Shown: positions 10,380 through 63,392, counted from the first letter of the stretch. The stretch is 64,000 nt of DNA from Clostridia bacterium (GCA_017472255.1 JAFUQU010000014.1:357845-421844), one strand, 5' to 3'. Translations and numbers: made by a program. The notes: generated by a model not told the origin, from the letters alone.

Positions 10380-11090
10380 TTACTCCAGTGCCTGACCGGC
10401 TCTTGCCGGGTCGTAGCCGCAGACCTCCGCCATCAGATCGATCAGCGTCCGTCCATCCTCTGCCAGCGCGTCGAGGGTAGTATCCGCGCGCAGCTTGCCC
10501 CGGTGAAGAATCACTGCCCGATCGAGAAAACCCGAGATTTCGCTGATTTCGTGGGTGGCGATGAGCAGTGTCTCGCCGTCCAGCATGGATGCCGCCAGCT
10601 TCAGAAAATCCCGGCGGGTGAAGATGTCCTTGCCCAGAAAAGGCTCATCCATCAGCAGATATTTCGCTCCCTTGGAGAAGCCGATGACTGTTTCCAGCTT
10701 GGCACGCTGTCCCTTGGACATGGCATAGGCTTTTTTGTCTAGCGGCAGATCAAAGAACTTCATCAGCCGGCAGAATCGCTCGCCGTCAAAGCGGGGATAG
10801 AATTTTTCCAGAAACCGCATATGTCCCCGCCCGTCCAGCGACGGAAACCAGCTGCCCGCTTCCGAGATATAGGCGATATCCGCCAGCATCTTTTCGGGCG
10901 GCTGACCGTCGATGGTGACGCTGCCGTTGGTGGGAGCGATCAGCCCGGCGATAATCCGCAGCAGCGTGGATTTGCCCGCGCCGTTGACGCCCAGCACACC
11001 TACTACTTCGCCGTCCGGGATGGTCAGCTTGATGCCCTCCAAGCCGATGGATTCCTTATAATATTTGTCAAGCGCATGACAGATGATCAT
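10380..11090 (-). CDS. ABC transporter ATP-binding protein (YtrB-like, ABC-2 subfamily)
   Basis: Walker A GVNGAGKST, signature MSKGQRAKL, Walker B LLMDEP; start overlaps the stop of the upstream paralog (ATGA). Confidence 0.85.
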   Translation of the reverse strand: MIICHALDKYYKESIGLEGIKLTIPDGEVVGVLGVNGAGKSTLLRIIAGLIAPTNGSVTIDGQPPEKMLADIAYISEAGSWFPSLDGRGHMRFLEKFYPRFDGERFCRLMKFFDLPLDKKAYAMSKGQRAKLETVIGFSKGAKYLLMDEPFLGKDIFTRRDFLKLAASMLDGETLLIATHEISEISGFLDRAVILHRGKLRADTTLDALAEDGRTLIDLMAEVCGYDPARAGQALE

Positions 11091-12595
11091 GGTTCCTTGC
11101 TCCTTTCAAGAAAAAGCTGCACATATTGATAGTCTCCGCTGCCGCCGGAAAAGCTGGCGGTGAAGGGATGAAGATTCATAGCCACCCCGCCGTTTTTGTC
11201 CATAACCGAAACCGAGACCACGTAACCGATGGCGCCGCCTCCGTACTCGGTCAGCAGTCCGGCGTAGGTTTCGCCGGAGACGCCTCCGGCATCCACACGA
11301 AGCCAGGTCTTATAATCGGACAAATCCAGCACATACAACCGTTCGCCGTCCCACAGCGCGTCCCAGGAGGGGCGCAGGTATTCGACCAGCCGATAGTCGG
11401 TGTAAACACCGATTGGATATTCCCACGCCGTATCGCCGTATGCCAGCAGCTTGCCTGTGTCCGGTGAAAGGGCGGCGTAATACGCATGGTCGGCGGTCAG
11501 CACGCGGAAGACGGCGGCGTTATCGTCGGCCATGATGGCGGAGGTGTCCAAGATTTCGTCGTCAAGCGTCCACGTCATGCCCGGCTTGCCCGATAATCCC
11601 TCGGCGAGGACGGACAGGTGCAGGCTGTCCCCGTCCCGGATTGCGCAGAGGGCTCGTCCGTGGTCGGCGCTGAACCACTCCAGCGTTCCGGCGGTGTCCT
11701 CGGGGAAGGTATAGATACGTTTGGTGCCGATATAGTCGTCCGTTGTATCAATTTCCGTGACCCAGACCGCCGCGCCTCCAATCCGGTCGGCACACAGCAG
11801 GTCAACGCTGGTCAGCCGATAACTGCGGCTTCCGGTTCTCTCCGACCAGAGAAAGTCTGTCGGATCGATTTCCTCACCGTTGATGGTGATGTAGACGGTT
11901 GTCGTATAATCATACGCCAGCGGATCGGGTTCTTCGAGAAAGTTGTCGGTACGCTGGGGCGGGAACCATACCCGGATATCGCCGTATTCCTCAGCAGTGA
12001 TGGTGCGCGGCTCACCCAGCGGGGTGGCATTTTTGTAACCGTAGGATGCCAGTTCGCCCAGCGAATGAAACCCATGCAGCGCAAGCTGAACGTTCACCTT
12101 GTCGATGGTGTAGCATTCCGTCCAGTAGGTACCGGCAACACCGTCGATGACACCTTCCAGAATGGGGTAGTCCGGGTTGAGATCGCCGACTCGCGTCATT
12201 TTTGCATCCTCCGGAATGAATGCGATGATGAATGGCTTCTGACCGATAGCATAGCCACGGATGTTGTTGAATAAGCTCCAGACACCCTCTGTCAGATGTC
12301 CGCAGTAATCTGCGGCCGCTTGCCCGCCCAGCTGACGGACGATGACGGTTTCGCCGCCGGTGACGCGGAATTCACAGCCCCAATCGTTGCCGGTGTCGCT
12401 ATCCCGGCTGTATGGGTCATAGTAGTATGGGTCATAGAAGCTGCCCCGGATGGCGATGCTGTCCAGCAGTCCGCCGCAGTCATCCAGCGTGAGGGTAGTG
12501 AAGCTGCGATAACCCGCACCGAACAGTCCGCACACCAGCCCCAACACAATTGCAATTGCAATCAGCGGGAGAAAAGCCTGAATATTTTGTCTCAT
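11087..12595 (-). CDS. Exported or membrane-anchored protein of unknown family, paralog 1 of 3
   Basis: N-terminal TM anchor, DDCGGLLD motif, conserved LGEPRTITAEEYG, GKLLAYG, DALWDGERLYVLD, and C-terminal YGGGAIGYVVSVSVMDKNGGVAMNLHP motifs shared with the two upstream genes. Confidence 0.6.
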   Translation of the reverse strand: MRQNIQAFLPLIAIAIVLGLVCGLFGAGYRSFTTLTLDDCGGLLDSIAIRGSFYDPYYYDPYSRDSDTGNDWGCEFRVTGGETVIVRQLGGQAAADYCGHLTEGVWSLFNNIRGYAIGQKPFIIAFIPEDAKMTRVGDLNPDYPILEGVIDGVAGTYWTECYTIDKVNVQLALHGFHSLGELASYGYKNATPLGEPRTITAEEYGDIRVWFPPQRTDNFLEEPDPLAYDYTTTVYITINGEEIDPTDFLWSERTGSRSYRLTSVDLLCADRIGGAAVWVTEIDTTDDYIGTKRIYTFPEDTAGTLEWFSADHGRALCAIRDGDSLHLSVLAEGLSGKPGMTWTLDDEILDTSAIMADDNAAVFRVLTADHAYYAALSPDTGKLLAYGDTAWEYPIGVYTDYRLVEYLRPSWDALWDGERLYVLDLSDYKTWLRVDAGGVSGETYAGLLTEYGGGAIGYVVSVSVMDKNGGVAMNLHPFTASFSGGSGDYQYVQLFLERSKEP

Positions 12596-14055
12596 GATTC
12601 GTTTTCTACCTCAAAATATAGCTGCACATATTGACCGCTGCCGCTGGAGCCGGAAAAATTGGCGGTGATGGGGTGCAGTCCCATGGCGATTTCGCCGTCC
12701 TTATCCATGACCGAAATCGAAACCGCATGACCAATGACGCCGCCGCCATAAAGCGCCAATCGTTCCTGATTATCGGTGTTTGTTGAATAAAGCTGGCATT
12801 CATAGTCCGAGCGGTCGAGGACATACAGCCGCTCGCCGTCCCAGAGGGCGTCGAAGCCGGGGACGCTGCTGTTGTAGTTCAGCAATCGGCTGTCGAATGC
12901 AAAGGGTGTGCTTCCGTATGCCAGCAGCTTGCCGGAGGCGGGGTCAACGGCGGCGTAGGTGACGGTGTCGTAGTTGGTGGATATCCGCATACAGACCGCG
13001 CCGTTTGAGACGAGAGAGGCGACGGATGCGTCTTCAACGCCGTACAGGGTCAGAACCCTGACCGGGCTTTTCCCGCAGGACAGGGCGCGCAGCTCCAGCA
13101 TATCGCCGTCCCGAACCGCACAGACGGCGGCGTTTTCTCCGTTGGTGTAAATCCCCGCCAGCGACAGCTTTTCGTTATCCTCAAAGGCGGCAATCCGTTC
13201 GGTGGATATGACCTTCCTGTCCGCATCCAGCGTCGTGACCCACACCGACGCGCTGCCGATATTGTCCGTGGTCAGCGCGTCCACATGGGTGACGGCATAG
13301 CCGCCCTTCGTTTTCTCGGCAAAGACTGCGCCATGCGGCAGCTCGCTGATGTCGCCGATTGAGAACCACGCCGTCCATTCGGTGTTATAGGAGACGTAGG
13401 GGTAGCCGCTCTTCGGCACGGTTTTGCTGTAGTCGAAGTATGGAGCCATCCAGACAGTCAGCTTGCCGTATTCCTCGGCGGTGACGGTGCGCGGCTCGCC
13501 CAGCAGAATCAGATCAAGCTGCTCGGGGGTGTATTCGATCAGGTTTTCCAGCGAACCACGGGACAGGGCGTATTGATACGTCAGCTTGTCGGCGGTGTAG
13601 CCCTTGGCGCGGAAGCCGTCGAGGACGGTTTCGCCGTCCCTGTCCACGCTGCCGTAGCAATAGGGCAGATCGGGGTAAACATTGTCGATGGGGGTCAGCG
13701 TGGCGTCGTCCGGAACGGTAACGACGGCGATAAGACTGCGATTAAGGATGTCGCGGACGGTGGAACTGCTCCAGATGGCAGAATTCATGCCGTAATAGGA
13801 TTTCAGCTCCTTCCACTGCACATGAGTTTCTGCTTTAACCGTCTCCCCGGCGTTCAGCTTGAAGCTGCATCCGTAACTGCCGGACTGGTAAAATCGTCCG
13901 CTGACGGCGAGACCGTCCAACAGCCCGCCGCAGTCATCGAAGGCAACGGTAAAGGCGTAGTCACTGTAGCCCACTGCCAGCAGACTTACGGTCAACACCA
14001 TGACCAGAATCAGGGCAAGAATCGGAAAAAGTGCGTGAAGCCAGTATTTTTTCAT
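12592..14055 (-). CDS. Exported or membrane-anchored protein of unknown family, paralog 2 of 3
   Basis: Same architecture and motifs as 11087-12595; start chosen at MKKYW (RBS AAGGAGA upstream); alternative ATG at 14061. Confidence 0.6.
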   Translation of the reverse strand: MKKYWLHALFPILALILVMVLTVSLLAVGYSDYAFTVAFDDCGGLLDGLAVSGRFYQSGSYGCSFKLNAGETVKAETHVQWKELKSYYGMNSAIWSSSTVRDILNRSLIAVVTVPDDATLTPIDNVYPDLPYCYGSVDRDGETVLDGFRAKGYTADKLTYQYALSRGSLENLIEYTPEQLDLILLGEPRTVTAEEYGKLTVWMAPYFDYSKTVPKSGYPYVSYNTEWTAWFSIGDISELPHGAVFAEKTKGGYAVTHVDALTTDNIGSASVWVTTLDADRKVISTERIAAFEDNEKLSLAGIYTNGENAAVCAVRDGDMLELRALSCGKSPVRVLTLYGVEDASVASLVSNGAVCMRISTNYDTVTYAAVDPASGKLLAYGSTPFAFDSRLLNYNSSVPGFDALWDGERLYVLDRSDYECQLYSTNTDNQERLALYGGGVIGHAVSISVMDKDGEIAMGLHPITANFSGSSGSGQYVQLYFEVENES

Positions 14056-14066
14056 GAACATTCTCC

Positions 14067-15486
14067 TTAATCGGCGAAGCGGACGATGAACCGCTGGGCT
14101 GAGCCGTTATTGCCCGAATAGAGGGTGTTGAGCGGATGGAGGTTCATGGACACTTCGCCGTCGGCGTCCATCACCGACAAAGTGACGAAGTATCCGGTCA
14201 TGCCGCCGCCGTATCGTGTGAGCATATCCTGATCGCTCCATTCGGGAGTGGAGGGGTAATCATACTGCAGGGCGGTGGAGAAGTGGTATTCGGCGTTGTC
14301 GAGGACGTAGAGCCTGTCATGAAGCCACAGCGCGTCGAAATCCTGTTCCGTTCCGGTCAGCGTGTAGCCCCGGTGGTAAACGTTGGTCAGCTCGGTTTTG
14401 CCGTGAGCCAGCAGGCTGCCGTCGGTCATGGACAGGGCGAAATACTGCGCCTCCTCCTCGTAGGACACGCCGCCGTACATCCGCCGGACACGGAAGCAGG
14501 CCGCGCCGTTTGAGAGGACCGCACGAACCGTGGGGGCGTAATACTCCTCGACGGCGGTGGGAATGTTGTACGGCTCACAGGGCTGACCGTCGGCAAAGAT
14601 TTGCAGGATGATAGCGTTGTCCGAACGGACGGCGGTGAGCAGATTCTTGCCTTCAGCGCTGAACCAGAGTAAGGTTTGCGGGCTGTCGTAGTTGATTTCG
14701 GTCAGCAGCCAGCTGCCGACCGGTGTGGTTCCCACGATATCGGTGACGCGCACATCGGCGTGCAGGCAGTCGTGGCTGTCCCAGAGGTAGCAGCGCATAC
14801 CGCTGCCGGTGTATTCGATGTAGGCGATGCGGTCTTCAAAGGAGGTATCATCGGTGTAAAAAGGCTTTCCTGCGGCAAAGCTCTGAATCTTGCTGTAATC
14901 GACGGCAACAGTGTGACCGCCGCCCTCCCAATCCGGGAGTATATCCAGCGCGTAGCGGATGTACAGCGGCTGTCCCTCATCATCCTCGGTGAGTGTACGT
15001 GGTTCGGCGAGAGGGATTTCCTTCTTTTTTGTACTGTCTGTCAGATAGTATTGATATGTGACGGCAGACACCTGATAATAGTCATCATAGTAGAGATTTC
15101 CCTCATAGGAAAAAGCTATAGGCAGATTGTACGCGGCGGGATCGATCTGCGTCAGCTCTGCACCCTCCGGCAGAGTGATGCGGCATTCCAGAAACCAGCC
15201 GGAAGCGCCGTTTGCTGACAGCACGCCGTCGGTGTAGAACTTCGATTCGTCGGACATGACTGCGGCGTGGGCGCTGCCGCCGAAGGAAACAGTGGTGTCA
15301 TAGCGCAGCTTGTCGAAGCTGTCGTAATATTCCAGCTCCAGGGACACATTCTCCAGTCCATCCACGGCGGTGAGATAAGCGGGGAAGGCGTAGCTTGTGT
15401 AGCCGACAGTTATGCAGCCGATAAACAGCGCCAGAGTCAGCGCCGCTGTCAGAATCGGCAGGGACGCGGTGAACAGATGCTTCATG
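14067..15486 (-). CDS. Exported or membrane-anchored protein of unknown family, paralog 3 of 3 (most divergent)
   Basis: Signal/anchor MKHLFTASLPILTAALTLALFIGC; shares LAEPRTLTEDDEG, DALWLHDRLYVLD, YGGGMTGYFVTLSVMDADGEVSMNLHP; track ORF trimmed by 101 codons to the first plausible start. Confidence 0.55.
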
Positions 15487-15496
15487 GCGGTAAGCC

Positions 15497-16264
15497 TCAC
15501 AGGGTATCGCCGCGGCGGATAAGGCTGCAGGCTTTCCATCCGGCGATGGCTGCTAAAACAAGCGCGGCGAAGATCAGTACGGGAATCACATCCGCCGTTC
15601 CCAAAGCGCAGAGCAGGATGAAGCCTGCGGCAAGAGCAAGTCCCGACCAGCGGCGGGCCATCACGGACAGGGCGGCACAGAGGGTGACGGCGGGTGCGCC
15701 AAGGTGGACGGTCAGCATAAAGAGCCATTCTCCGGCGGTGCGGGGAAGGACGAAGTGCAGGAATTCGTCCCGCAGGAATGCCAGCCATACGGCGTTCGGT
15801 TCCACATAGACGGTGTAAGTCACCCTCTCACGCAGGGAGGTCAGCGCGGCGTAAAGCTGCTCATAAGCCAGCCGGACGCTGATATGCTGTGCGGCACTCA
15901 GCAGCAGAAGGGTCATCACGCCGCCGACGAGATAAGCGATGAACACCCAAACCCGGCTCACCGGAACCGTGTACAGGCTGAGCACCGATCGGGAGATCAG
16001 ATAGCGGCGAAGCACTGACGCGGTCAACAGCGCCATCAGCAGCACGACGGCGGCGACATAGACGCCCGCGAAGCCGCTTTGATCGATCATTGTGGAAAAG
16101 AGGACATAGCGCAGTTCCAGCGAACCTGCGCTGTCGAGCTGCAAGGCAAACATGAGCTGCTGTACGACAATCAGCGCGGCGGAGACGGCGAGCCCGGCGA
16201 TCAGCAGATCGCGCATAAGAAATTCGCAGAGCAGGAGCGGACGCTTGATGGTTTCGTTTTTCAT
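15497..16264 (-). CDS. Polytopic membrane protein (about 6 TM; possible ABC-2-type permease partner)
   Basis: Hydrophobic segments throughout; lies between the GntR regulator and the paralog triplet; start at MKNETIKRP. Confidence 0.5.
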   Translation of the reverse strand: MKNETIKRPLLLCEFLMRDLLIAGLAVSAALIVVQQLMFALQLDSAGSLELRYVLFSTMIDQSGFAGVYVAAVVLLMALLTASVLRRYLISRSVLSLYTVPVSRVWVFIAYLVGGVMTLLLLSAAQHISVRLAYEQLYAALTSLRERVTYTVYVEPNAVWLAFLRDEFLHFVLPRTAGEWLFMLTVHLGAPAVTLCAALSVMARRWSGLALAAGFILLCALGTADVIPVLIFAALVLAAIAGWKACSLIRRGDTL

Positions 16265-16326
16265 GGTAATTTCCAGCCTTTCGTGGGTAAAGTGTGTGGT
16301 TTGATTCATACGGTGTGTCGGCGGAT

Positions 16327-16707
16327 TCAATCCTTCCAGTTGTCGCCCAGCAGCTGTACCGCCGAGCGGAAGTCCAGCCCCAGGTCGCGCAGACGGTTGA
16401 CATAAATCTGCGCCGCCTCATGCGCCAGTCCTTCGCGGATGGCGTCCACCGTTTCATCGGACGCGCAGAGGACGCTGCCCGAGCCTGGCTGACTGGCGAG
16501 AATGCCCTCATCCTCTAATATTTTATATGCTTTCTGAACGGTGTTTGGGTTGATTTCCAGCTGAACCGCCAGCTCCCGCCTGCTGGGCAGGGGATCGCCC
16601 CGGTGCAGCTGACCAGCTGCCAGCCGTGATTTTACCTGCCGCACGATGGACAGGTAGACCGGCTCACTGCCGTCCGGACGCTCGAATTCAATGCCGCTGT
16701 GTGCCAT
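16327..16707 (-). CDS. GntR-family transcriptional regulator (YtrA-like, short)
   Basis: Winged HTH: LPSRRELAVQLEINPNTVQKAYKILEDEGIL; 126 aa; first gene of the minus-strand operon. Confidence 0.8.
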   Translation of the reverse strand: MAHSGIEFERPDGSEPVYLSIVRQVKSRLAAGQLHRGDPLPSRRELAVQLEINPNTVQKAYKILEDEGILASQPGSGSVLCASDETVDAIREGLAHEAAQIYVNRLRDLGLDFRSAVQLLGDNWKD

Positions 16708-53021: not shown

Positions 53022-53774
53022 ATGAAAGAAATCAAAAGAATTCTCAGTTTTACCCGCCGTGCCGTGGACGATTACGAGATGATCGACGACGGCGACCGTA
53101 TCGCCGTGGGCATTTCCGGCGGCAAGGATTCGCTGACGCTGCTTTACGCGCTGGCAGAGCTGCGGCGGTTTTATCCGAAAAAATTTGAGCTGGAGGCTAT
53201 TACAATCGACATGGGCTTTTCCACGCCGGTGGATTTCACGCCGGTGGCCGATTTATGCCGGGAGCTGGATGTGCCCTACACCATCGTACCTACGCAGATT
53301 GCTCATATCGTTTTTGACGTGCGCAAGGAGAAAAATCCCTGCGGACTTTGCGCGAAAATGCGGCGGGGTGCGCTGCATGACGCCTGCAAGCTGCGTGGCT
53401 GCAATAAGCTGGCGCTGGGACATCATTTCGACGATGTGGTGGATACCTTCATGCTCAATCTGTTCTACGAGGGACGGCTTGGCTCCTTCTCGCCCGTGAC
53501 CTATCTTTCCCGAAAGGATCTGACCATGATCCGCCCGCTGCTCTATGCACAGGAGAAGGATGTGCGCTATTTCATCAACCACCATCCGCTGCCGGTAATT
53601 ACCTCTCCCTGTCCGGCGGACAAGCATACCGAGCGGGAGTCCATGAAGCAGCTGCTGGCCTCTCTGGAGCGGAACAATAAAGGCTTGCGCCACCGTATTT
53701 TCGGCGCGCTCCAGAAGGCGGGAATCGACGGCTACAAGGAAGGAAAGCTGGTCGTCTTCCCGGATGATGAATAA
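53022..53774 (+). CDS. PP-loop ATPase of the TtcA/TilS superfamily (tRNA thiolation-type)
   Basis: SGGKDS PP-loop; CGLCAKMRRG and later Cys motifs. Confidence 0.7.
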   Translation: MKEIKRILSFTRRAVDDYEMIDDGDRIAVGISGGKDSLTLLYALAELRRFYPKKFELEAITIDMGFSTPVDFTPVADLCRELDVPYTIVPTQIAHIVFDVRKEKNPCGLCAKMRRGALHDACKLRGCNKLALGHHFDDVVDTFMLNLFYEGRLGSFSPVTYLSRKDLTMIRPLLYAQEKDVRYFINHHPLPVITSPCPADKHTERESMKQLLASLERNNKGLRHRIFGALQKAGIDGYKEGKLVVFPDDE

Positions 53775-53869
53775 TTTCCCTGCATTTCATAAAAACTTTC
53801 GCAAAAGCCTTTATTTTGGGGGACTTTTGTGATATAATATAATGTAACGAACTTTTTTGGAGATTTACT

Positions 53870-55702
53870 ATGTGTGGATTTGTCGGCTTCACCGGGAAGC
53901 TGGAAAAGCAAAAGGAAATCCTGAATAACATGATGGCGCGGATTGTCCATCGCGGCCCTGATTCGGCGGGAGAATTCCTCGGCGAGGATGTGGCGCTGGG
54001 CTTCCGGCGTCTGAGCATCATCGACCTTGACGGCGGCTCGCAGCCCATGTACAATGAGGACGGCAGCGTAGTCATCGTTTTCAACGGTGAGATATACAAT
54101 TTTATGTCCCTTCGCGAGGAGCTTTCGGCGGCGGGACATACCTTCAGAACCCGGTCGGACACCGAAACGCTGGTGCATGGCTGGGAAGAATGGGGCGAAA
54201 AGCTCGCATCGAAGCTGCGCGGGATGTTCGCCTTCCTGCTTTACGATAAAAAGAGCGGCGTCCTTTACGGCGCCCGGGATTACTTCGGCATCAAGCCGTA
54301 CTACTACTACCGCACCGCAGAGGGAAACTACCTTTTCGGCTCGGAAATCAAGTCCTTCCTCGAGCATCCGGGCTTTGACAAGCGGCTCAACAAAAAGGCG
54401 CTGCGCCCCTATCTGACCTTCCAGTATTCGTCGCTGGACGAGACCTTCTTCGAGGGCGTGTTCAAGCTGCCTCCGGCGCATTATTTCACGCTGAAGGACG
54501 GAGCGATGACAGTCACTCGTTACTGGGACGCCGACTTCACCGAGAAGCCGGGCGACTTCGACGCATATGTCAACGACATCGACAAAACGGTCAATGAGTC
54601 CGTGGCGGCGCATAAGATCAGCGATGTGAAGGTGGGTGCGTTTCTTTCGGGCGGCGTGGATTCGTCCTATATCACCGCCTGCCTGATGCCCGACAAGACC
54701 TTCTCCGTGGGCTTCGATTACCATAAATTTAACGAAACCAACTACGCAAAGGAACTGTCTGACCGTCTGGGCATCGAAAATTACCGCAAGCTGATTACCG
54801 CCGACGAATGCTTTGACGCTTTTGCTGACATTCAGTATCATATGGACGAGCCGCAGTCCAACCCCTCCAGCGTACCGCTCTATTTTCTCGCAAAGCTTGC
54901 CAGAGAGCAGGTTACAGTGGTGCTGTCCGGCGAGGGCGCGGATGAAATCTATGCCGGCTACGAGTGGTACGACGAGACGCCCATGATGCAGAAATACAAG
55001 AAAATCCCGCAGCCCCTGCGTATCGCGGCGGCGGGTGTGGCAAAGCGGCTGCCCTACTTTAAGGGACACGATTTCATCATCAAGTCCAGCGGACGCCCGG
55101 AGGATTACTTCATCGGTCAGGCTATGGTCTGGGCGGAGAAGGACGCGCTTCGGGTGCTCAAGCCCGCGTTTCGCTGCGGACCTTCCACGAAGGAGGTCAC
55201 GGCGCCGATTTATGCCCGGGTGAAGGACAAATCGGAGCTTGACAAGAAGCAGTACCTCGACCTGAATCTCTGGCTGCCGGGGGATATTCTGCTCAAAGCC
55301 GACAAAATGAGCATGGCAAGCTCGCTGGAGCTTCGCGTGCCCTTCCTCGACCGTGTGGTCATGGAACAGGCGCAGGCGCTGCCTCACGAGTACAAGATCA
55401 ACGGCAAAAATACCAAGTACATCTTCCGCAAGGCCGCCAACAAAACCCTCCCCGACGAGTGGGCTGACCGCAAGAAGATGGGCTTCCCCGTGCCCATCCG
55501 CTACTGGCTGAAGGAAGAAAAATATTACAACATCGTCAAAGGCTATTTCACCAGCGACTATGCCGCCGAGTTCTTTGACACCGACGCGCTCGTCGCCCTG
55601 CTTGACGAGCACCGCGCCGACAAGGCCAACAACGGACGCCGCATCTGGACGGTTTTCACCTTCCTTGTCTGGTACAAACGATTCTTCATCGACGAAACAT
55701 AA
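53870..55702 (+). CDS. Asparagine synthase (glutamine-hydrolysing) family amidotransferase (AsnB / AsnH-like)
   Basis: N-terminal MCGFVGF Ntn-GATase; SGGVDSS PP-loop; 610 aa. Confidence 0.85.
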   Translation: MCGFVGFTGKLEKQKEILNNMMARIVHRGPDSAGEFLGEDVALGFRRLSIIDLDGGSQPMYNEDGSVVIVFNGEIYNFMSLREELSAAGHTFRTRSDTETLVHGWEEWGEKLASKLRGMFAFLLYDKKSGVLYGARDYFGIKPYYYYRTAEGNYLFGSEIKSFLEHPGFDKRLNKKALRPYLTFQYSSLDETFFEGVFKLPPAHYFTLKDGAMTVTRYWDADFTEKPGDFDAYVNDIDKTVNESVAAHKISDVKVGAFLSGGVDSSYITACLMPDKTFSVGFDYHKFNETNYAKELSDRLGIENYRKLITADECFDAFADIQYHMDEPQSNPSSVPLYFLAKLAREQVTVVLSGEGADEIYAGYEWYDETPMMQKYKKIPQPLRIAAAGVAKRLPYFKGHDFIIKSSGRPEDYFIGQAMVWAEKDALRVLKPAFRCGPSTKEVTAPIYARVKDKSELDKKQYLDLNLWLPGDILLKADKMSMASSLELRVPFLDRVVMEQAQALPHEYKINGKNTKYIFRKAANKTLPDEWADRKKMGFPVPIRYWLKEEKYYNIVKGYFTSDYAAEFFDTDALVALLDEHRADKANNGRRIWTVFTFLVWYKRFFIDET

Positions 55703-55744
55703 TATCGTCGTTTTTCTCATAAAATCAACTGGAGAGATCAAATC

Positions 55745-56980
55745 ATGGAAAAACGCAACATCATCCCGGTTCTGCTGGGCGCTGACCTGAACTGCTACAG
55801 TGTGGCGCGCGCCTTTCACGAACAGTACGGGGTAAAATCCTATGCGTTCGGACGCTATGCCATCGGCGCGTCCAAATATACACGAATTCTGAAATTCAAC
55901 GTGGTCGAAAAGCTGGACGATCCCGACGTGATGGTTGAGACGCTGCTTGACTTCGCGGCAAAGCATGAGGGCGCGTCCCTTATTGCCTTTGGCTGCACCG
56001 ACGATTACGCCGCCATGCTCATCCATAACGGCGACCGCCTCCGTCCCCGCTATATCGTGCCCTACATCGGACCGGAGCTGTTCGAGCGGCTGGCGTACAA
56101 GGCCAGCTTCTACGAGGACTGCGACCGCTGCGGCATTCTCTATCCCAAAACGGTGGTTGTCACCCCCGAAACCAATCTGGACGAGACGCTGGATGAGGCG
56201 GCGCTGGGCTTCTCCTATCCGATCATCGTCAAGCCCTCGGCCAGCGCGGTTTACTGGAAGTATCCCTTCGACGGCATGAAGAAGGTCTACACCGCCGCGT
56301 CCAAGGGCGAAGCCGAGATCATTATCCGCCGCATCTATGGCTCGGGCTACCCGGAGAAGATTATTCTTCAGGATATGATTCCCGGCGACGATTCCAGAAT
56401 GCGGGTGCTCACCGCCTATTCCGATCAGAACGGCAAGGTGAAGATGATGTGCCTCGGTCATGTGCTGCTGGAGGAACACACGCCCAAGGGTCTGGGCAAT
56501 CACTGTGCCATCATTACCGAGCAGGATCGCCCGCTGATGGAGAAGTTCAAGGCTTATTTGGAGGGGCTGCATTTTGTGGGCTACTCCAATTTCGACATCA
56601 AGTATGACGAGCGTGACAATACCTTCCGCGCCTTTGAAATCAATCTGCGGCTGGGACGAAGCAACAACTATGTGACCTCTGCGGGCTGCAACGTGGCGCG
56701 CTATATTGTGGAGGACTTTCTTGGCGAAGGCTTGCCGGAGGAGACCTATTTCTGCGACAATGAGATACTCTGGCACAGCGTGCCTAAAAAGGTGGTCTAC
56801 GAATACTGCCGCGACAAGGCTATGGCTGATCGAGCAAAAGAACTGGCGAAGACCGGCAAGGCGCATCCGGCGCTGTGGTATAGCCCGGACACCTTCTTCA
56901 ACCCCATGCGCACCTTCTTCCTGACCATGCACGGCTACAACCATTTCGGAAAATTCAAGAAGTATTATGGCAAAGAGTAA
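55745..56980 (+). CDS. ATP-grasp family ligase (candidate D-aspartate ligase, Aslfm/AslA-like)
   Basis: PreATP-grasp + ATP-grasp fold; 3' end overlaps an aspartate racemase gene, with AsnB-family and murE genes flanking. Confidence 0.55.
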   Translation: MEKRNIIPVLLGADLNCYSVARAFHEQYGVKSYAFGRYAIGASKYTRILKFNVVEKLDDPDVMVETLLDFAAKHEGASLIAFGCTDDYAAMLIHNGDRLRPRYIVPYIGPELFERLAYKASFYEDCDRCGILYPKTVVVTPETNLDETLDEAALGFSYPIIVKPSASAVYWKYPFDGMKKVYTAASKGEAEIIIRRIYGSGYPEKIILQDMIPGDDSRMRVLTAYSDQNGKVKMMCLGHVLLEEHTPKGLGNHCAIITEQDRPLMEKFKAYLEGLHFVGYSNFDIKYDERDNTFRAFEINLRLGRSNNYVTSAGCNVARYIVEDFLGEGLPEETYFCDNEILWHSVPKKVVYEYCRDKAMADRAKELAKTGKAHPALWYSPDTFFNPMRTFFLTMHGYNHFGKFKKYYGKE

Positions 56981-57674
56981 AACGCTTGGCATTCTGGGCG
57001 GTCTGGGACCGATGTCCACCGTCTACTTCTACGAGCTGCTGACCTCGCTGACCCGCGCGTCGTGCGATCAGGAGCATATCGATATCGTCATCTCCAGCCG
57101 CGCCACCACTCCCGACCGCACCCGCTATATTTTAGGGCAGTCGGATGAAAATCCGCTGGACGCCATGATTCCCGACGCGAAGCGTTTGATCGCCTTCGGC
57201 GCGGAACTGATCGCCATTCCCTGCAATACGGCGCACTATTTCTATGACGCGCTGGCCGCCGAAGTGGACGTTCCCATTCTCAACATCATCGAGGAAGCGG
57301 TGCGGACGATGAAAGGAGACGGCGTGTCCCGGTTCGGACTGCTGGCGACCGACGGTACCGTGCGCTCCGAAACCTATCAGCGCTACTGCTCCACCCACGG
57401 CATCGAATGCGTCGTTCCCGACGACGCCAGACAGGCTCGGGTGATGGACATTATCTACGGCTCCATCAAGCAGAACAAGCCGGTGGACACCGAGAGCTTC
57501 TATGAAATCGCCCACACGATGCGCTCCTGGGGCTGTGAGCGGCTGGTGCTGGGCTGCACCGAGCTGTCGCTTATCAAGAAAAACGAGGGGCTTGGCGCTT
57601 ATTACGTGGATCCGCTGGAGTGTCTGGCGCTGTCGTCCATCCACGCCTGCGGAAAGCAGTCAATATTTGACTGA
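56967..57674 (+). CDS. Aspartate racemase (Asp/Glu/hydantoin racemase family)
   Basis: Two conserved Cys regions (ASCDQEH..., IPCNTAHYF, LGCTELS); 235 aa. Confidence 0.8.
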   Translation: MAKSKTLGILGGLGPMSTVYFYELLTSLTRASCDQEHIDIVISSRATTPDRTRYILGQSDENPLDAMIPDAKRLIAFGAELIAIPCNTAHYFYDALAAEVDVPILNIIEEAVRTMKGDGVSRFGLLATDGTVRSETYQRYCSTHGIECVVPDDARQARVMDIIYGSIKQNKPVDTESFYEIAHTMRSWGCERLVLGCTELSLIKKNEGLGAYYVDPLECLALSSIHACGKQSIFD

Positions 57675-57701
57675 AATCATTCAAAAGGAGTCAACGCTTT
57701 T

Positions 57702-59195
57702 ATGCTGCTGACACACATTCTCGCCGATCTGAACTATACATCCGATACCCCTGCCGAAAAGCTGGGACGTATCAATATTGCCGACATCGTTTATGATTCC
57801 CGCAAAGCGGTGCCCGGGACGATGTTCATCTGCCTCATCGGCGCGGTGTCCGACGGACACAATTACGCAGAGGGCGCTTATCAGAGCGGCTGCCGGGTCT
57901 TTCTGGTGCAGCGAAAGCTGGAACTGCCCGCCGACGCGGTGCAGATTCTGGTGGAAGATACCCGCACGTCCATGGCATTGGCATCGGCGGCGCTGTTTGA
58001 ATATCCGGCGCGCTCGCTGCTCATCATCGGCGTTACCGGCACCAAGGGAAAAACCACCGTTGCGTCGCTGGTTGCCGATATTCTCAGCGAGGGCGGCATC
58101 AACACCGCTTACATCGGTACTACCGGCATCCTGATCAACGGCGTGCGCACACCTACGGTGAACACCACCCCCGAAAGCTACGAACTGCACAAAGCCTTCC
58201 GCAAAATGGTGGAATCGGGCGTGTCCTGCTGCGTCATGGAGGTGTCCAGTCAGGCGGTCTATATGCGCCGCATCACCGGCATTCACTTTCACATCGGCGT
58301 GTTCACTAACCTCTCCCCCGATCACATCGGCGGTGTGGAGCATCCCACCTTCGAGCATTATATGAGCTGCAAGGCGGAACTGTTCAAACAGTGCCGCTAC
58401 GGTATTTTCAACGCGGACGATTCGCATTTCACCGATATGGTGAAAAACGCCCGGTCGATCAACACCACCTTCGGGCTGGAAGCAAACGGTGTCCGCGATA
58501 TCAGTGCCCGGGATATGCGCCCGTGGAAGCGAGGAAATCTGCTGGGAGAACGGTTTATCTGCAAATCCGTGCTGGGCGAAAGCGAAATCGAGCTGCGTAT
58601 GCCCGGCGAGTTTAACGTTTACAACGCGCTGGCAGCCATTGCCGTGGCGCAGCGGATGGGCATCCGGGAGAGCGTGATCAAAAGTGCCCTTGCCAAAGCT
58701 ACGGTGCGCGGACGCTTCGAAATCGTGGACGCGCTGCCCGACGCGGTGACGATTATCGATTACGCCCACAATGCCGTCTCCATGCGTGCCGCGCTGGAGA
58801 CGATTCGCAAGTACCAGCCCAAACGGCTGGTGGTGCTTTTTGGCTCGGTGGGCGGACGAACCCAGCTGCGCCGGGGCGAGCTGGGGGAAATCGCCGCCAC
58901 TATGGCGGATTTCTGCATCATCACCAGCGATAACCCCAATTTTGAGCCGCCGGAGGACATTATTCACGACATCGAGGAAAGCGTGGCCGCCACCTCCTGT
59001 CCCTATGTTACCTTTGTCGATCGCCGGGAGGCTGTACGTTATGCAATCGGTCACGCGCTGGCGGGCGACTGCATCCTGTTCGCCGGAAAGGGGCATGAGC
59101 AGTATCAGCTGATCGAGGGCGAATACTGCCATTACGACGAGCGGGAGGAAATTCTCGCGGCTGCGGCTGCGGTTCGCGCGGCGGTCAATCAATAA
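57702..59195 (+). CDS. murE: UDP-N-acetylmuramoyl-L-alanyl-D-glutamate ligase, Lys-type signature (DNPN instead of DNPR)
   Basis: Mur ligase domains (GVTGTKGKTT P-loop); DNPN at residues 410-413 (nt 58929-58940). Confidence 0.8.
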   Translation: MLLTHILADLNYTSDTPAEKLGRINIADIVYDSRKAVPGTMFICLIGAVSDGHNYAEGAYQSGCRVFLVQRKLELPADAVQILVEDTRTSMALASAALFEYPARSLLIIGVTGTKGKTTVASLVADILSEGGINTAYIGTTGILINGVRTPTVNTTPESYELHKAFRKMVESGVSCCVMEVSSQAVYMRRITGIHFHIGVFTNLSPDHIGGVEHPTFEHYMSCKAELFKQCRYGIFNADDSHFTDMVKNARSINTTFGLEANGVRDISARDMRPWKRGNLLGERFICKSVLGESEIELRMPGEFNVYNALAAIAVAQRMGIRESVIKSALAKATVRGRFEIVDALPDAVTIIDYAHNAVSMRAALETIRKYQPKRLVVLFGSVGGRTQLRRGELGEIAATMADFCIITSDNPNFEPPEDIIHDIEESVAATSCPYVTFVDRREAVRYAIGHALAGDCILFAGKGHEQYQLIEGEYCHYDEREEILAAAAAVRAAVNQ

Positions 59196-59218
59196 GTTCA
59201 AAACGGAGAACGTAAAAA

Positions 59219-60694
59219 ATGAAGAAACGGCTTCTCTCCCTGCTTCTTGCATCGCTCCTTGCTCTCACAGCCTGCGGTGGGTCGGCTTCGCCCGATGAAA
59301 CGCAGGAAAGCAGAACCTACACCCACGACGAGCGCATGGAAATCCTTGACGATACCGCGTTAAAGCTGCCTGTAGATTTCTACGAAACGGAGGCGAAGGC
59401 TCGCTATTTCGAAACGCTGGATATTATCCGGCAGGAATATTTTGAGCCGATGTCCGTAGCCGATCAGTGCTTTACCGATTTTCTGGAGGCGAAAGCGGCG
59501 CTGACCTGCTCCTATCGCAGCGACTATCCGGTGATCGTCATCACCGCCCCGAACAATCTGGGCAAAACCTACGCAGACGGGTATGTGACGGTCATTGAAG
59601 ACGGCGAGATCATCGAGAGCGATGTGACCATCAAGGTTCGCGGCAACAGCACCGCCGGTGCGCCCAAGAAGCCGTACAACATTAAATTCCCCGAATCGGT
59701 GTCCCTGCTGGGCATGGAGGAGGGCAAAAAGTGGTCGCTGCTGGCGAATATGTTCGACAAAACCATGCTGCGCAATAAGCTGGCGCTGGATTTTGCCGGA
59801 GAGATGGGGCTGGCGCACACCTCCCAGTCGGAGTTCTGCGAGGTCTGGTTCAACGGAAAGTATCAGGGCAACTACCTGCTCTGCGAGCCGGTTTCGGACG
59901 GCAAGAACCGCTTGGATCTGGACACGTCGGGTAACGAGTTTATTCTGGAGATCACGCCCTTCGGCGGCTGGAGCTTCAAGTCGGGCGCTGGGGTGGAGAT
60001 TCTCTACGATTCGCCCGAAGATCCCACCGAGGCTCAGAAGACATATCTGAACAAACTGCTGGATTTGGCTGAGGCTGCCATGGAAAGCGGCGATTTGAAG
60101 GAATGTGCGAAGTATATCGATGTGCAGTCGTTCATCGATCTCTACTGCATGATGGAGCTGTTCAAGGATGTGGACGGCTACTGGAAATCGCTCTATTTCT
60201 ACGTGAAAGACGATAAGCTTTGCGCCGGACCTGCGTGGGATTTTGACCTGTCCTGCGGCAACGTGAGCAAAACCTACGTGGAGGATAATTACTTCAACTA
60301 CCACAATTCCAACGGTTACGGCGATAAGTCCAACGACAGCACCCATGGTTTACGCATGGCTCACGGCTGGTGGGCGATTCTGCTGGAATCGGAGGAGTTC
60401 GCGTCGATGGTGCGTGAGCGGTATCTGGAATTGCAGTCGCTGATTGTCAATCTGTACGAGGACAACGAGCTGGGCGGAAACCGCATCGATGCGCTGATCG
60501 AGGAAAACGGCGCGTCCTTTAACCGGGAGTATACGAAGGACGACGGCTCGGGCTATGGCGCGGGTTGGAGCATCAGCGAGATCTATTCGATCTATGCGGG
60601 CGAGTCTATGGGCGATTATGAGGATAACGTGGAGTTTCTTCGGGAGTGGCTGCGTGACCGCAACGCCTGGCTTCTTGAAAATATAGGAAAATAA
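59219..60694 (+). CDS. CotH-family lipoprotein
   Basis: Lipobox LTACGG; CotH kinase-fold motifs (NIKFPESVSLLG..., VWFNGKYQGNYLLCEPV). Confidence 0.65.
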   Translation: MKKRLLSLLLASLLALTACGGSASPDETQESRTYTHDERMEILDDTALKLPVDFYETEAKARYFETLDIIRQEYFEPMSVADQCFTDFLEAKAALTCSYRSDYPVIVITAPNNLGKTYADGYVTVIEDGEIIESDVTIKVRGNSTAGAPKKPYNIKFPESVSLLGMEEGKKWSLLANMFDKTMLRNKLALDFAGEMGLAHTSQSEFCEVWFNGKYQGNYLLCEPVSDGKNRLDLDTSGNEFILEITPFGGWSFKSGAGVEILYDSPEDPTEAQKTYLNKLLDLAEAAMESGDLKECAKYIDVQSFIDLYCMMELFKDVDGYWKSLYFYVKDDKLCAGPAWDFDLSCGNVSKTYVEDNYFNYHNSNGYGDKSNDSTHGLRMAHGWWAILLESEEFASMVRERYLELQSLIVNLYEDNELGGNRIDALIEENGASFNREYTKDDGSGYGAGWSISEIYSIYAGESMGDYEDNVEFLREWLRDRNAWLLENIGK

Positions 60695-61720: not shown

Positions 61721-62083
61721 ATGGAAAACCTGAAACTCTGTGAAAGCGATTACCGCTTCATGTGCGTGATCTGGGACAACGAGCCGCTGACGTCCCGGCG
61801 TCTGGTGGAACTGTGCGCCGGACGTCTTGGCTGGAAGAAGCCCACCACCTACACCACGCTGAAAAAGCTCTGCGACAAAGGGTTCGCGCAGAACGTGGAC
61901 ACCATCGTCACTTCGCTGATACCACGGGAACGGGTGCAGGCTTACGAAAGCGAGCGCTTTGTGGAACGCGCCTTCGACGGTTCGCTGCCCGGATTTTTAG
62001 CGTCCTTCCTCGGCGGCAAGACGATTTCCGACGAGGAAGCCGAAGCGCTGAAGGCGCTGATCGACGCGCATCGGGAGGATTGA
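61721..62083 (+). CDS. BlaI/MecI/CopY-family transcriptional repressor
   Basis: Winged-helix N-terminus (RFMCVIWDNEPLTSRRLVE..KPTTYTTLKKLCDKGF) plus dimerisation C-terminus; 120 aa. Confidence 0.8.
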   Translation: MENLKLCESDYRFMCVIWDNEPLTSRRLVELCAGRLGWKKPTTYTTLKKLCDKGFAQNVDTIVTSLIPRERVQAYESERFVERAFDGSLPGFLASFLGGKTISDEEAEALKALIDAHRED

Positions 62084-62084
62084 C

Positions 62085-63392
62085 ATGGAAGGGGGATTTG
62101 TGACGATTCTCAACATGAGCATCGCCGCGTCATGGGTGATATTGGCGATACTGGCGGTGCGGCTGGCGCTTGCGCGAGCGCCGAAGAAGTTTTCCTATTG
62201 GCTGTGGATTGCGGCGGGCTTCCGGCTCTGCTGCCCGGTGGGAGTGAAGCTGCCGTTCAGCTTGTTCAACCTGCTTCGTACCGATGATATGACTTTCGTG
62301 CCTGCCGACCTCGGCATGATGGCAGAACCGCAGGTTTCCACCGGCTCTTTGGCGGCGGATTCGCTGATCAACCCGCTGCTTCCGGCGGCGACGCCGCAGT
62401 ACAGTGCCAATCCGATGCAGATTTGGCTATTCGCCGGCGCAATCATCTGGATTGCCGGTGCGGCGGCGATATTGCTTTACGGCGTGATTTCTTACGGGTT
62501 GACGGCTTATCGGATGCGGACTGCGGTAAAGCTGGAGGGAAATGTCTGGCAGTCCGATCGGGTGCGATCACCCTTTGTCATGGGGATATGGAAGCCGCGC
62601 ATTTTTGTTCCGTTTGGGCTGAATGACGAGACGATGCGCTATGTGCTGGCGCATGAACGGTTCCACATCCGGCATGGCGACCATGCTGTTCGGCTGTTTT
62701 CCTACGGATTGTTGGCGCTCCACTGGTTCAATCCCCTCTGCTGGCTGGCGTATAGGCTGATGGGGTGGGACATGGAGCTGCGCTGCGACGAGGCGGTTCT
62801 GGCATCTGGCGAAAGCAGGACGGCATACAGCGAGACGCTGCTGGCACTGGCGGCGAATTCACGGCGGTTTATGCCGGGGCTGTCCGGTTTTGGTGAGACG
62901 GGCGTTCGGGCGCGGATAAAGAACGCGCTGCGCTGGCGTGAGCCGAAGCGCTGGGTCAACGCGGCGGCAGCCGTCGCGGTGGTTGCCGTGGTGACGGCGT
63001 GCGCATCCGACCCGGCGGTGGAGGCGCTGGAGACGTTGGATTCCTGCTTTGTCCATATCGAGGGGCGGAGCTTCACCGCGCAGGCGGCGAAGGATTTTAA
63101 CTTCGACTACGATAAGCTGCCCGACTTGATTGTTGACGGCGAAGGGACGCTGGTTATCAATGTCTCCGTTTCCGGCGATACGCTGACTGTGGGCGAGGAC
63201 TACTATCAGGCGTTGGGGACGAATGGCACTACGATCAAGAGGGAGACCTTTACGCTGAATCGGGACGATGACGGTCTGTTCCGGCTTCCTGTGAAGCGGC
63301 GAGGTACGTCATCGGAGGATGAGTACGCGGTTTATTACATCGTGGGCGACGACGGAAAATACTCGGTTCGGGTGCTGTTTCCCGCTTCATAA
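62085..63392 (+). CDS. BlaR1-like M56-family membrane metalloprotease with non-PBP extracellular C-terminal domain
   Basis: 4-TM N-domain; HEXXH (AHERFHIRHGDH); C-terminal about 150 aa unlike the penicillin-binding sensor domain. Confidence 0.7.
   Translation: MEGGFVTILNMSIAASWVILAILAVRLALARAPKKFSYWLWIAAGFRLCCPVGVKLPFSLFNLLRTDDMTFVPADLGMMAEPQVSTGSLAADSLINPLLPAATPQYSANPMQIWLFAGAIIWIAGAAAILLYGVISYGLTAYRMRTAVKLEGNVWQSDRVRSPFVMGIWKPRIFVPFGLNDETMRYVLAHERFHIRHGDHAVRLFSYGLLALHWFNPLCWLAYRLMGWDMELRCDEAVLASGESRTAYSETLLALAANSRRFMPGLSGFGETGVRARIKNALRWREPKRWVNAAAAVAVVAVVTACASDPAVEALETLDSCFVHIEGRSFTAQAAKDFNFDYDKLPDLIVDGEGTLVINVSVSGDTLTVGEDYYQALGTNGTTIKRETFTLNRDDDGLFRLPVKRRGTSSEDEYAVYYIVGDDGKYSVRVLFPAS

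Follow-up and report, generated by a model that had tools for sequence, protein, structure and literature searches.

D-aspartate cross-bridges in peptidoglycan are already known from lactic acid bacteria, with Aslfm and Racfm in Enterococcus faecium and RacD, AslA and AsnH in Lactococcus lactis as the best described enzymes. In the published racD-aslA operon the racemase and ligase genes are adjacent, and in Lactobacillus plantarum, which has no aslA, an AsnB-family gene is co-localised with murE and its product, AsnB1, amidates the free carboxyl of meso-diaminopimelic acid (mDAP) (PMC4155827). Here we analysed a 64,000-nucleotide stretch of a metagenome-assembled genome (MAG) of a Clostridia bacterium (GCA_017472255.1, JAFUQU010000014.1:357845-421844), hereafter the window, in which consecutive genes encode an AsnB-family amidotransferase, an ATP-grasp ligase, an aspartate racemase and a MurE paralogue. 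We consider it probable that these four genes form one operon, which would make a branched precursor of peptidoglycan that carries D-aspartate as its cross-bridge. The four open reading frames (ORFs) lie exactly where the initial annotation had placed them, at 53870-59195 and all on the plus strand, and the identities it proposed also held, three of them through Pfam and NCBIfam models and that of the ligase through family homology.

The locus shares the same three enzyme types with E. faecium and L. lactis, and its ligase belongs to the same sequence family. The racemase and ligase genes are adjacent as in the racD-aslA operon, and the AsnB-ligase adjacency is also found in L. crispatus. However, the window unites all three enzymes with a dedicated MurE paralogue in one operon, and its gene order is ligase then racemase, overlapping, whereas L. 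lactis has racD then aslA. The ligase is only 35-38% identical to Lactobacillales ligases, and it comes from the MAG of a spore-forming member of the Clostridia. The co-localisation of an AsnB-family gene with murE recalls L. plantarum AsnB1-MurE, and Collinsella shows this adjacency as well: in Collinsella aerofaciens (L104, NZ_OY725717.1) asnB lies directly upstream of a MurE of non-mDAP type with EDPA at its specificity motif. In contrast to L. plantarum, asnB and murE are separated here by genes for a D-Asp ligase and a racemase, and the window MurE has no mDAP-binding Arg, so the likely target of the window AsnB is the bridge D-Asp and not mDAP.

The genes are separated by 42, -14 and 27 nt, from AsnB to MurE. 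A GGAG Shine-Dalgarno sequence was found upstream of each of the three non-overlapping genes (AsnB, ligase and MurE), and upstream of the racemase start, which lies inside the ligase gene, there is only a weak purine-rich AAGAAG. The 14-nt overlap of the ligase and racemase genes (56967-56980), likewise claimed in the initial annotation, is real, because the ATG at 56967 is needed to retain GILGGLGP, an N-terminal motif whose alignment to the Pyrococcus aspartate racemase starts at residue 2 of the latter. A later start, called at window position 57012 by one metagenome gene-caller, would remove this motif.

The ligase was scanned against Pfam and NCBIfam, and no curated model reached its cut-off. 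Its Lactobacillaceae orthologues likewise gave only sub-threshold 'carbamoyl phosphate synthase-like' matches in both collections. Members of the family carry names such as 'hypothetical protein', 'carboxylate--amine ligase' and 'ATP-grasp domain-containing protein' because no Pfam-A or NCBIfam model recognises the D-aspartate ligase family. An AlphaFold model built with 44 homologues (predicted local distance difference test score 93.4, predicted template modelling score 0.90) showed an ATP-grasp fold with ATP- and Mg-binding residues. An exhaustive search recovered 370 clusters at E < 1e-30, and K119, K163, D284, E298-x-N300 and R302 were conserved across the family. A PDB sequence search with the ligase profile returned nothing significant, and hence no solved family member.

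We then compared the ligase with lactobacilli by tblastn, using large chromosomal records within a plasmid collection. L. curvatus carries a ligase of 36.7% identity over 98% of the query (E 3e-84) in the context aspS - amino acid racemase - ligase - aspartate aminotransferase/decarboxylase, an arrangement that matches the published racD-aslA layout (PMC4155827; PMC13631041). The L. crispatus ligase (38.2% over 99%) lies 21 nt downstream of asnB, and that of L. fermentum (35.1% over 91%) has neither a racemase nor an asnB gene adjacent. The nearest family representatives to the Lactobacillaceae ligases come from Vagococcus fluvialis, Periweissella, Bifidobacterium, Bombilactobacillus and Eggerthellaceae, and several of them carry the IMG/UniProt name 'D-aspartate ligase'. 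Representatives with Vagococcus fluvialis, Periweissella and Bifidobacterium proteins in their cluster scored 218-293 bits. Aligned over its full length, the window ligase shows 33-39% identity to D-aspartate ligase family members from Lactobacillaceae, Vagococcus, Periweissella and Bifidobacterium. In B. adolescentis, beta-Asp/beta-isoAsn bridges together with Aslfm and AsnH homologues have been reported. These results support membership of the ligase in the D-aspartate ligase family (Aslfm/AslA, EC 6.3.1.12), as an assignment made from homology at the family level and not against the type enzymes. A further homologue (36.8% identity) was seen on the conjugative 546-kb megaplasmid pl546 of Bacillus mycoides (L105, CP067054.1), where the ligase is split into two ORFs by an apparent frameshift and is followed, with an 8-nt overlap, by an 'amino acid racemase' gene.

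The racemase matched Asp_Glu_race (PF01177, 138 bits) and TIGR00035 (213 bits), and its best solved relative was the Pyrococcus horikoshii aspartate racemase 1JFL (E 1.8e-44). The catalytic cysteine pair is present, in PCNTAH and GCTE, and aligns to Cys82 and Cys194 of the P. horikoshii enzyme, in which the C82A mutant structure 2dx7 marks the position of Cys82. The protein is 37.6% identical to the ligase-adjacent racemase of L. curvatus and falls far under the cut-offs of glutamate racemase models. It also passed the NCBIfam model for cysteate racemase CuyB (NF052483; 203 bits, cut-off 190). This match says nothing against aspartate, because the Pyrococcus aspartate racemase passes the same model with 248 bits; the Subdoligranulum racemase reached 222 bits and L. 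curvatus RacD 185. We rejected the CuyB match as a basis for naming the enzyme, since the model also captures a genuine aspartate racemase and does not discriminate between the two substrates; gene context favours aspartate.

The AsnB-family protein scored 532 bits with TIGR01536, a generic model that does not distinguish AsnH from biosynthetic AsnB. Its active site is intact, with the N-terminal Cys2, the SGGVDSS PP-loop and both the GATase_7 and Asn_synthase domains, and it is 46% identical to the L. crispatus asnB product mentioned above. Its predicted role is to convert the bridge D-Asp to D-iso-Asn by amidation of the alpha-carboxyl. This target is suggested because, with Lys or Orn at position 3, the only other free carboxyl is that of D-Glu, and because the linkage of AsnB to the ligase is conserved. 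The known D-Glu amidating enzyme is MurT/GatD (PMC4155827).

The MurE paralogue contains the Mur_ligase, Mur_ligase_M and Mur_ligase_C domains of Pfam and the P-loop GTKGKT, and scored 384 bits with TIGR01085 (cut-off 257). A split cyanophycin synthetase (ATP-grasp plus Mur-ligase) was considered and rejected, since this MurE is a full three-domain enzyme. In the DNPR motif of mDAP-adding enzymes, the Asn and Arg hydrogen-bond the free carboxylate of mDAP, and selection of Lys is attributed to an acidic pocket (Ruane et al., PMC3829189). The window MurE reads DNPN at this position, so that the mDAP-binding Arg is absent, and it retains the Asp (D410) and the GKGHE Glu that bind the side-chain amine. 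DNPN fits the published non-mDAP consensus D(D,N)P(N,A). The best solved match was the L-Lys-adding MurE of S. aureus (4c12, E 5e-73), in which DNPN aligns to DNPA; the mDAP ligases in the same structure alignment have DNPR there. Like the window enzyme, S. aureus MurE thus has a small or polar residue in place of the Arg, and the two share the motif Asp and the GKGHE Glu that bind the Lys epsilon-amino group. However, they are only about 33% identical, and the clade of the window MurE is separate from the Lys enzymes of S. aureus and E. faecalis. Because the nearer relatives of this clade are DNPR enzymes of Clostridia and not S. aureus MurE, the loss of Arg in it appears independent. Among the anchor enzymes, DNPR was read in E. 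coli, B. velezensis, Listeria, Monoglobus and Subdoligranulum (dcw cluster), DNPA in S. aureus, DDPA in E. faecalis and DDPG in L. curvatus. From these comparisons the window MurE is predicted to be of non-mDAP type, adding L-Lys or L-Orn at stem position 3.

To place the locus among its relatives we scanned one genome per species. Ligase relatives were found in at least 598 of 185,579 species, and the best 80 loci were analysed; many contigs end inside the locus, so the linkage counts are lower bounds. The order AsnB-ligase-racemase-MurE was found in 29 of the 80 loci, ligase-racemase-MurE in 24, AsnB-ligase-MurE in eight and the Slackia-type ligase-AsnB-MurE in six, and the remaining 13 were of other or truncated architecture. 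Linkage to the ligase was seen for MurE in 69/80 loci, for the racemase in 62/80 and for AsnB in 51/80, which associates the AsnB-family gene with the D-Asp ligase rather than with general Asn biosynthesis. Four sampled relatives, with ligase identities of 59, 55, 41 and 40%, kept the order ligase-racemase-MurE, three of them also with AsnB, amid unrelated flanking genes. Since the same order recurs in 29 loci, the ligase is linked to the racemase or MurE in most others, and the flanks are unrelated, the four-gene arrangement is not due to chance. The genes run ligase-racemase-AsnB in Subdoligranulum variabile (55%, 62% and 68% identity to the window proteins), which indicates that the cluster survives rearrangement. 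In Slackia, an actinomycetote, six loci (L055, L067, L069, L071, L073 and L074) encode a ligase (50-53% identity) and an AsnB (60-65%) near a divergent MurE (DDPG or EDPA), with no racemase nearby; these identities suggest transfer of the ligase-AsnB pair across phyla as a unit. Atopobium parvulum, of the same class as Slackia, is recorded as A4alpha L-Lys-D-Asp.

The initial annotation had called this wall type unexpected for a spore-forming Clostridia-like organism. That was overstated, as the carriers include the spore-forming genera Intestinibacter and Terrisporobacter besides many gut Clostridia.

We further examined the 60 MurEs inside the module. Their motifs were DNPD in 44, DNPN in four, EDPG in four, DNPG in three, DNPA in two, and DDPD and EDAG in one each, and one sequence was truncated; DNPR occurred in none of the 59 that could be read. 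In the genus nearest to the window, position 4 of the motif is N at one locus (L016) and D at another (L015), and the two residues look interchangeable there. In a neighbour-joining tree, 59 module MurEs of DNP/DDP type formed one clade with a bootstrap of 95/100, and in 99/100 replicates it contained no DNPR anchor of dcw type. The window MurE belongs to this clade, whose members have D, N, G or A at position 4. Five EDPG/EDAG module MurEs lay outside this main clade and grouped with E. faecalis, Vescimonas and Slackia enzymes.

Three of the related loci, from Romboutsia, Coprococcus and Bariatricus, contain two MurE genes within a few kb (Table 1). The Romboutsia locus reads MurE(DNPR) - sodium:dicarboxylate symporter - ligase - racemase - MurE', where MurE' breaks off ahead of the motif. 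In Coprococcus and Bariatricus massiliensis, ligase - racemase - MurE'(EDPG) is followed 1-3 kb further on by MurE(DNPR). In S. variabile TSDC17.2-1.1 (L004 and L013) no MurE was found within 8 kb of the ligase-racemase-AsnB trio, and a DNPR MurE sits in a true dcw cluster, where a penicillin-binding protein with PASTA domains is followed by MurE, MurF and MraY. Other Subdoligranulum/Gemmiger genomes (L046, L049, L050 and L052) carry AsnB-ligase-MurE(DNPD) without a racemase. The whole S. variabile TSDC17.2-1.1 assembly is filed as 'plasmids' in PLSDB. These loci indicate that module-bearing Clostridia can retain an mDAP-type MurE, and mDAP peptidoglycan may coexist in them with the D-Asp type. 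The absence of mDAP that the initial annotation had implied does not follow from the module. Within the 64-kb window itself, no second murE, other Mur ligase or dcw cluster was found.

Based on the above results, we propose a pathway of four steps, whose substrates and order are inferred. The MurE paralogue would add a diamino acid without a distal carboxylate, most likely L-Lys and possibly L-Orn, to UDP-MurNAc-L-Ala-D-Glu, and the racemase would turn L-Asp into D-Asp. The ATP-grasp ligase would then form an acyl-phosphate at the beta-carboxyl of D-Asp and couple this activated group to the side-chain amine of the diamino acid in the nucleotide precursor. Finally, the AsnB-family enzyme, with glutamine and ATP, would convert the bridge D-Asp into D-iso-Asn by amidating its free alpha-carboxyl. 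By analogy with E. faecium, L. lactis and many lactobacilli, the expected product is a wall of A4alpha (or A4beta) type. The initial annotation had predicted an L-Lys-D-Asp(Asn) peptidoglycan; its D-Asp bridge is supported by the ligase family, the cysteine pair of the racemase and the MurE without Arg, and L-Lys is not separable from L-Orn. L-Orn-D-Asp walls have been reported in Bacillus (PMC9781867).

Several observations weigh against this pathway. The link of the ligase to D-Asp runs through uncharacterised orthologues in species of known wall type. The window MurE lies above the cut-off of the NCBIfam mDAP-ligase equivalog NF001126 (434 vs 373) and below that of the L-Lys equivalog NF010628 (356.6 vs 536), a model that presumably represents the Bacilli Lys clade. 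We did not weigh this outcome heavily, since the annotation 'mDAP ligase' has also been given to the DDPG MurE of L. curvatus, whose wall is of Lys-D-Asp type. That enzyme (L103), encoded about 11 kb from the racemase-ligase pair, is named 'UDP-MurNAc-L-Ala-D-Glu--2,6-diaminopimelate ligase' despite the Lys-D-Asp wall, so database names are unreliable for MurE specificity. The motif at the DNPR position is itself a necessary signature and not a complete determinant: the A409R exchange alone gives S. aureus MurE no mDAP activity (PMC3829189), and Thermotoga MurE adds Lys despite DDPR. Moreover, DNPD, the commonest motif in the module and in the clade of the window MurE, is not among the characterised Lys motifs and has no biochemically characterised example among the anchors. 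The only MurE in the available records of S. variabile, which has the ligase trio, is the DNPR enzyme. AsnB is absent from 29 of the 80 loci, and amidation is probably optional across the family for this reason.

Part of this evidence would also fit a ligase that adds D-Asp to an mDAP stem, giving an A4gamma-like wall with the linked MurE as a second mDAP-adding enzyme. Such mDAP-D-Asp bridges exist in some actinobacteria, and the NF001126 score, the Subdoligranulum trio alongside a dcw-cluster DNPR MurE, and the three loci (Lachnospiraceae or Romboutsia) in which a DNPR MurE lies no more than a few kb from the ligase could all be read in this way. However, none of the readable module MurEs keeps the carboxylate-binding Arg, and most have an Asp there, which would repel the carboxylate of mDAP. 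In the three DNPR loci a separate MurE without the Arg adjoins the ligase-racemase pair (in Romboutsia the copy ends before the motif), and the name 'mDAP ligase' is given by NCBIfam and GenBank to the L. curvatus DDPG enzyme too. We thus regard an mDAP stem as quite improbable. A ligase that joins another acid (D-Glu, cysteate or another D-amino acid), or that makes a small peptide or polymer outside peptidoglycan, with a racemase acting on something other than aspartate, seems unlikely as well. Its case draws on the functional diversity of ATP-grasp families, the failure of any curated hidden Markov model to recognise the ligase, the CuyB score of the racemase, and the frameshifted pair on the megaplasmid of B. 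mycoides, whose wall we expect to be of mDAP type. But the Pyrococcus aspartate racemase passes the CuyB model too, and the nearest named relatives of the ligase come from D-Asp-bridged taxa. The linkage of the ligase to MurE in most loci argues that its product is a peptidoglycan precursor, and the Romboutsia cluster includes a symporter of the dicarboxylate (Asp/Glu) type. To our knowledge, MurI supplies D-Glu in all bacteria, so a dedicated racemase would be needless for that acid.

Mere co-location would require AsnB to be a housekeeping asparagine synthetase and MurE a normal cell-wall enzyme, with the other two genes as unrelated neighbours. TIGR01536 leaves room for the former, and the downstream CotH and prephenate dehydrogenase genes are equally tightly spaced yet unrelated. 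CotH is found in 0/80 loci, however, so tight spacing alone is not the argument; 29 of the 80 species share the four-gene order amid different flanks, the cluster tolerates rearrangement, the similarity of the Slackia ligase and AsnB suggests joint transfer, and an identity range of 45-81% speaks against an artefact of near-identical genomes. We see very little chance of such a coincidence. The preferred reading is still that of one operon for a D-Asp-bridged precursor.

The loci with two MurEs prompted a more tentative extension of this reading, which we hold to be possible but doubtful. Module-bearing Clostridia, possibly including the source organism, may have two MurEs and two peptidoglycans per cell, an mDAP type through the dcw DNPR enzyme and a Lys/Orn-D-Asx type through the operon, kept separate by compartment or life stage; the module MurE clade might then be an independent Clostridial non-mDAP invention, perhaps for another diamino acid. 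The classical example of two wall chemistries in one organism, and a possible precedent, is Lysinibacillus sphaericus, a spore-former with a D-Asp-bridged wall, which has a vegetative L-Lys-D-Asp wall and an mDAP spore cortex made with separate adding enzymes, comparable to the two MurEs in Romboutsia, Coprococcus and Bariatricus. Lysinibacillus sphaericus belongs to the Bacilli, whereas the window organism is one of the Clostridia. If two walls are indeed made, they may be split between the vegetative wall and the spore cortex or germ-cell wall.

The coordinates of the four genes and of other features are given in Table 1. A putative promoter of housekeeping type lies inside the 95-nt gap upstream of the AsnB gene, with a weak -35-like TTTATT (53810-53815), a 17-nt spacer and an extended -10 element, TGATATAAT (53830-53838). 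Unlike the rest of the intergenic spacer, which has diverged, the promoter blocks CTTTATTTT and TGATATAATAT are kept in two Ca. Flemingiibacterium species; the element is thus a candidate from which the operon may be expressed. Ca. Flemingiibacterium species are also the nearest species-level relatives of the source MAG, with a ligase identity of 80-81%. The window contains GerA and CotH genes, and these identify the source organism as a spore-former.

Table 1. Coordinates of the module genes, flanking features and comparison loci.
Feature	Record	Coordinates	Strand	Description
Putative housekeeping-type promoter	window	53809-53838	+	read from sequence
AsnB-family glutamine-dependent amidotransferase (AsnH-like)	window	53870-55702	+	610 aa; GATase_7 + Asn_synthase
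ATP-grasp ligase	window	55745-56980	+	411 aa; homology to D-aspartate ligase family
Aspartate racemase (RacD-like), two-cysteine, independent of pyridoxal phosphate	window	56967-57674	+	235 aa; Asp_Glu_race, TIGR00035
MurE paralogue, predicted non-mDAP type	window	57702-59195	+	497 aa; DNPN at DNPR position
CotH-family kinase	window	59219-60694	+	
BlaI-type repressor and BlaR1/M56 sensor-protease	window	61721-63392	+	two genes
Antisense ORF	window	53732-57019	-	1095 aa; rejected as a gene
Antisense ORF	window	57681-59252	-	523 aa; rejected as a gene
ABC-transporter ATPase	window	10380-11090		
Four consecutive ORFs	window	11087-16511	-	502, 489, 573 and 216 aa
MurE of L. curvatus	CP117684.1	320914-322455		DDPG
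Two-MurE locus	L063	7077-12962		
Two-MurE locus	L087	10001-15972		
Two-MurE locus	L089	10001-17900		

The functional unit is the four genes from AsnB to MurE. The CotH-family kinase gene begins 23 nt after MurE, and 21 nt separate its end from the prephenate dehydrogenase gene. At L015, the closest relative, prephenate dehydrogenase comes immediately after MurE, and CotH looks like a lineage-specific insertion into the 3' end of the operon. A BlaI-type repressor gene and a BlaR1/M56 sensor-protease gene, 1 nt apart, lie 2.5 kb downstream of MurE, and this pair is conserved in none of the related loci. CotH, prephenate dehydrogenase and BlaI/BlaR1 were rejected as members of the module; other flanking genes are conserved only within Flemingiibacterium. 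Two long antisense ORFs lie opposite the AsnB, ligase and MurE genes and were rejected as in-phase shadow ORFs. TTA, CTA and TCA codons are missing from these three genes and are rare across the whole window, at 0-7 per gene. Elsewhere in the window, four consecutive ORFs upstream of an ABC-transporter ATPase gene had no Pfam match at E < 1e-5.

Searches of the available literature found no description of Lys-D-Asp walls in Clostridia, and those on Peptostreptococcus, Terrisporobacter, Slackia and the Lysinibacillus cortex brought nothing of use. What is new here is an operon that packages the three bridge genes and a dedicated MurE paralogue together, the distinct MurE clade dominated by the uncharacterised DNPD motif, and the broad distribution of the module in gut and rumen Clostridia. 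The locus also exposes an annotation gap, as the D-aspartate ligase has no Pfam or NCBIfam model, the names given for MurE specificity are unreliable, and the CuyB model takes in aspartate racemases, which automated annotation may mislabel through it. A four-gene operon with a MurE lacking the Arg of DNPR can be used as a genome marker of wall chemotype. If the proposed pathway is true, a large and mostly uncultured share of gut and rumen Clostridia (Oscillospiraceae, Peptostreptococcaceae and Lachnospiraceae) would have Lys/Orn-D-Asx walls and not the mDAP walls that are commonly assumed. NOD1 senses mDAP-type fragments and not those of Lys type, and the wall type would in this way influence which muropeptides reach the host. 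It would also bear on susceptibility to lysins, lysozyme and cationic peptides, and on how beta-lactam and L,D-transpeptidase biology is read in these organisms.

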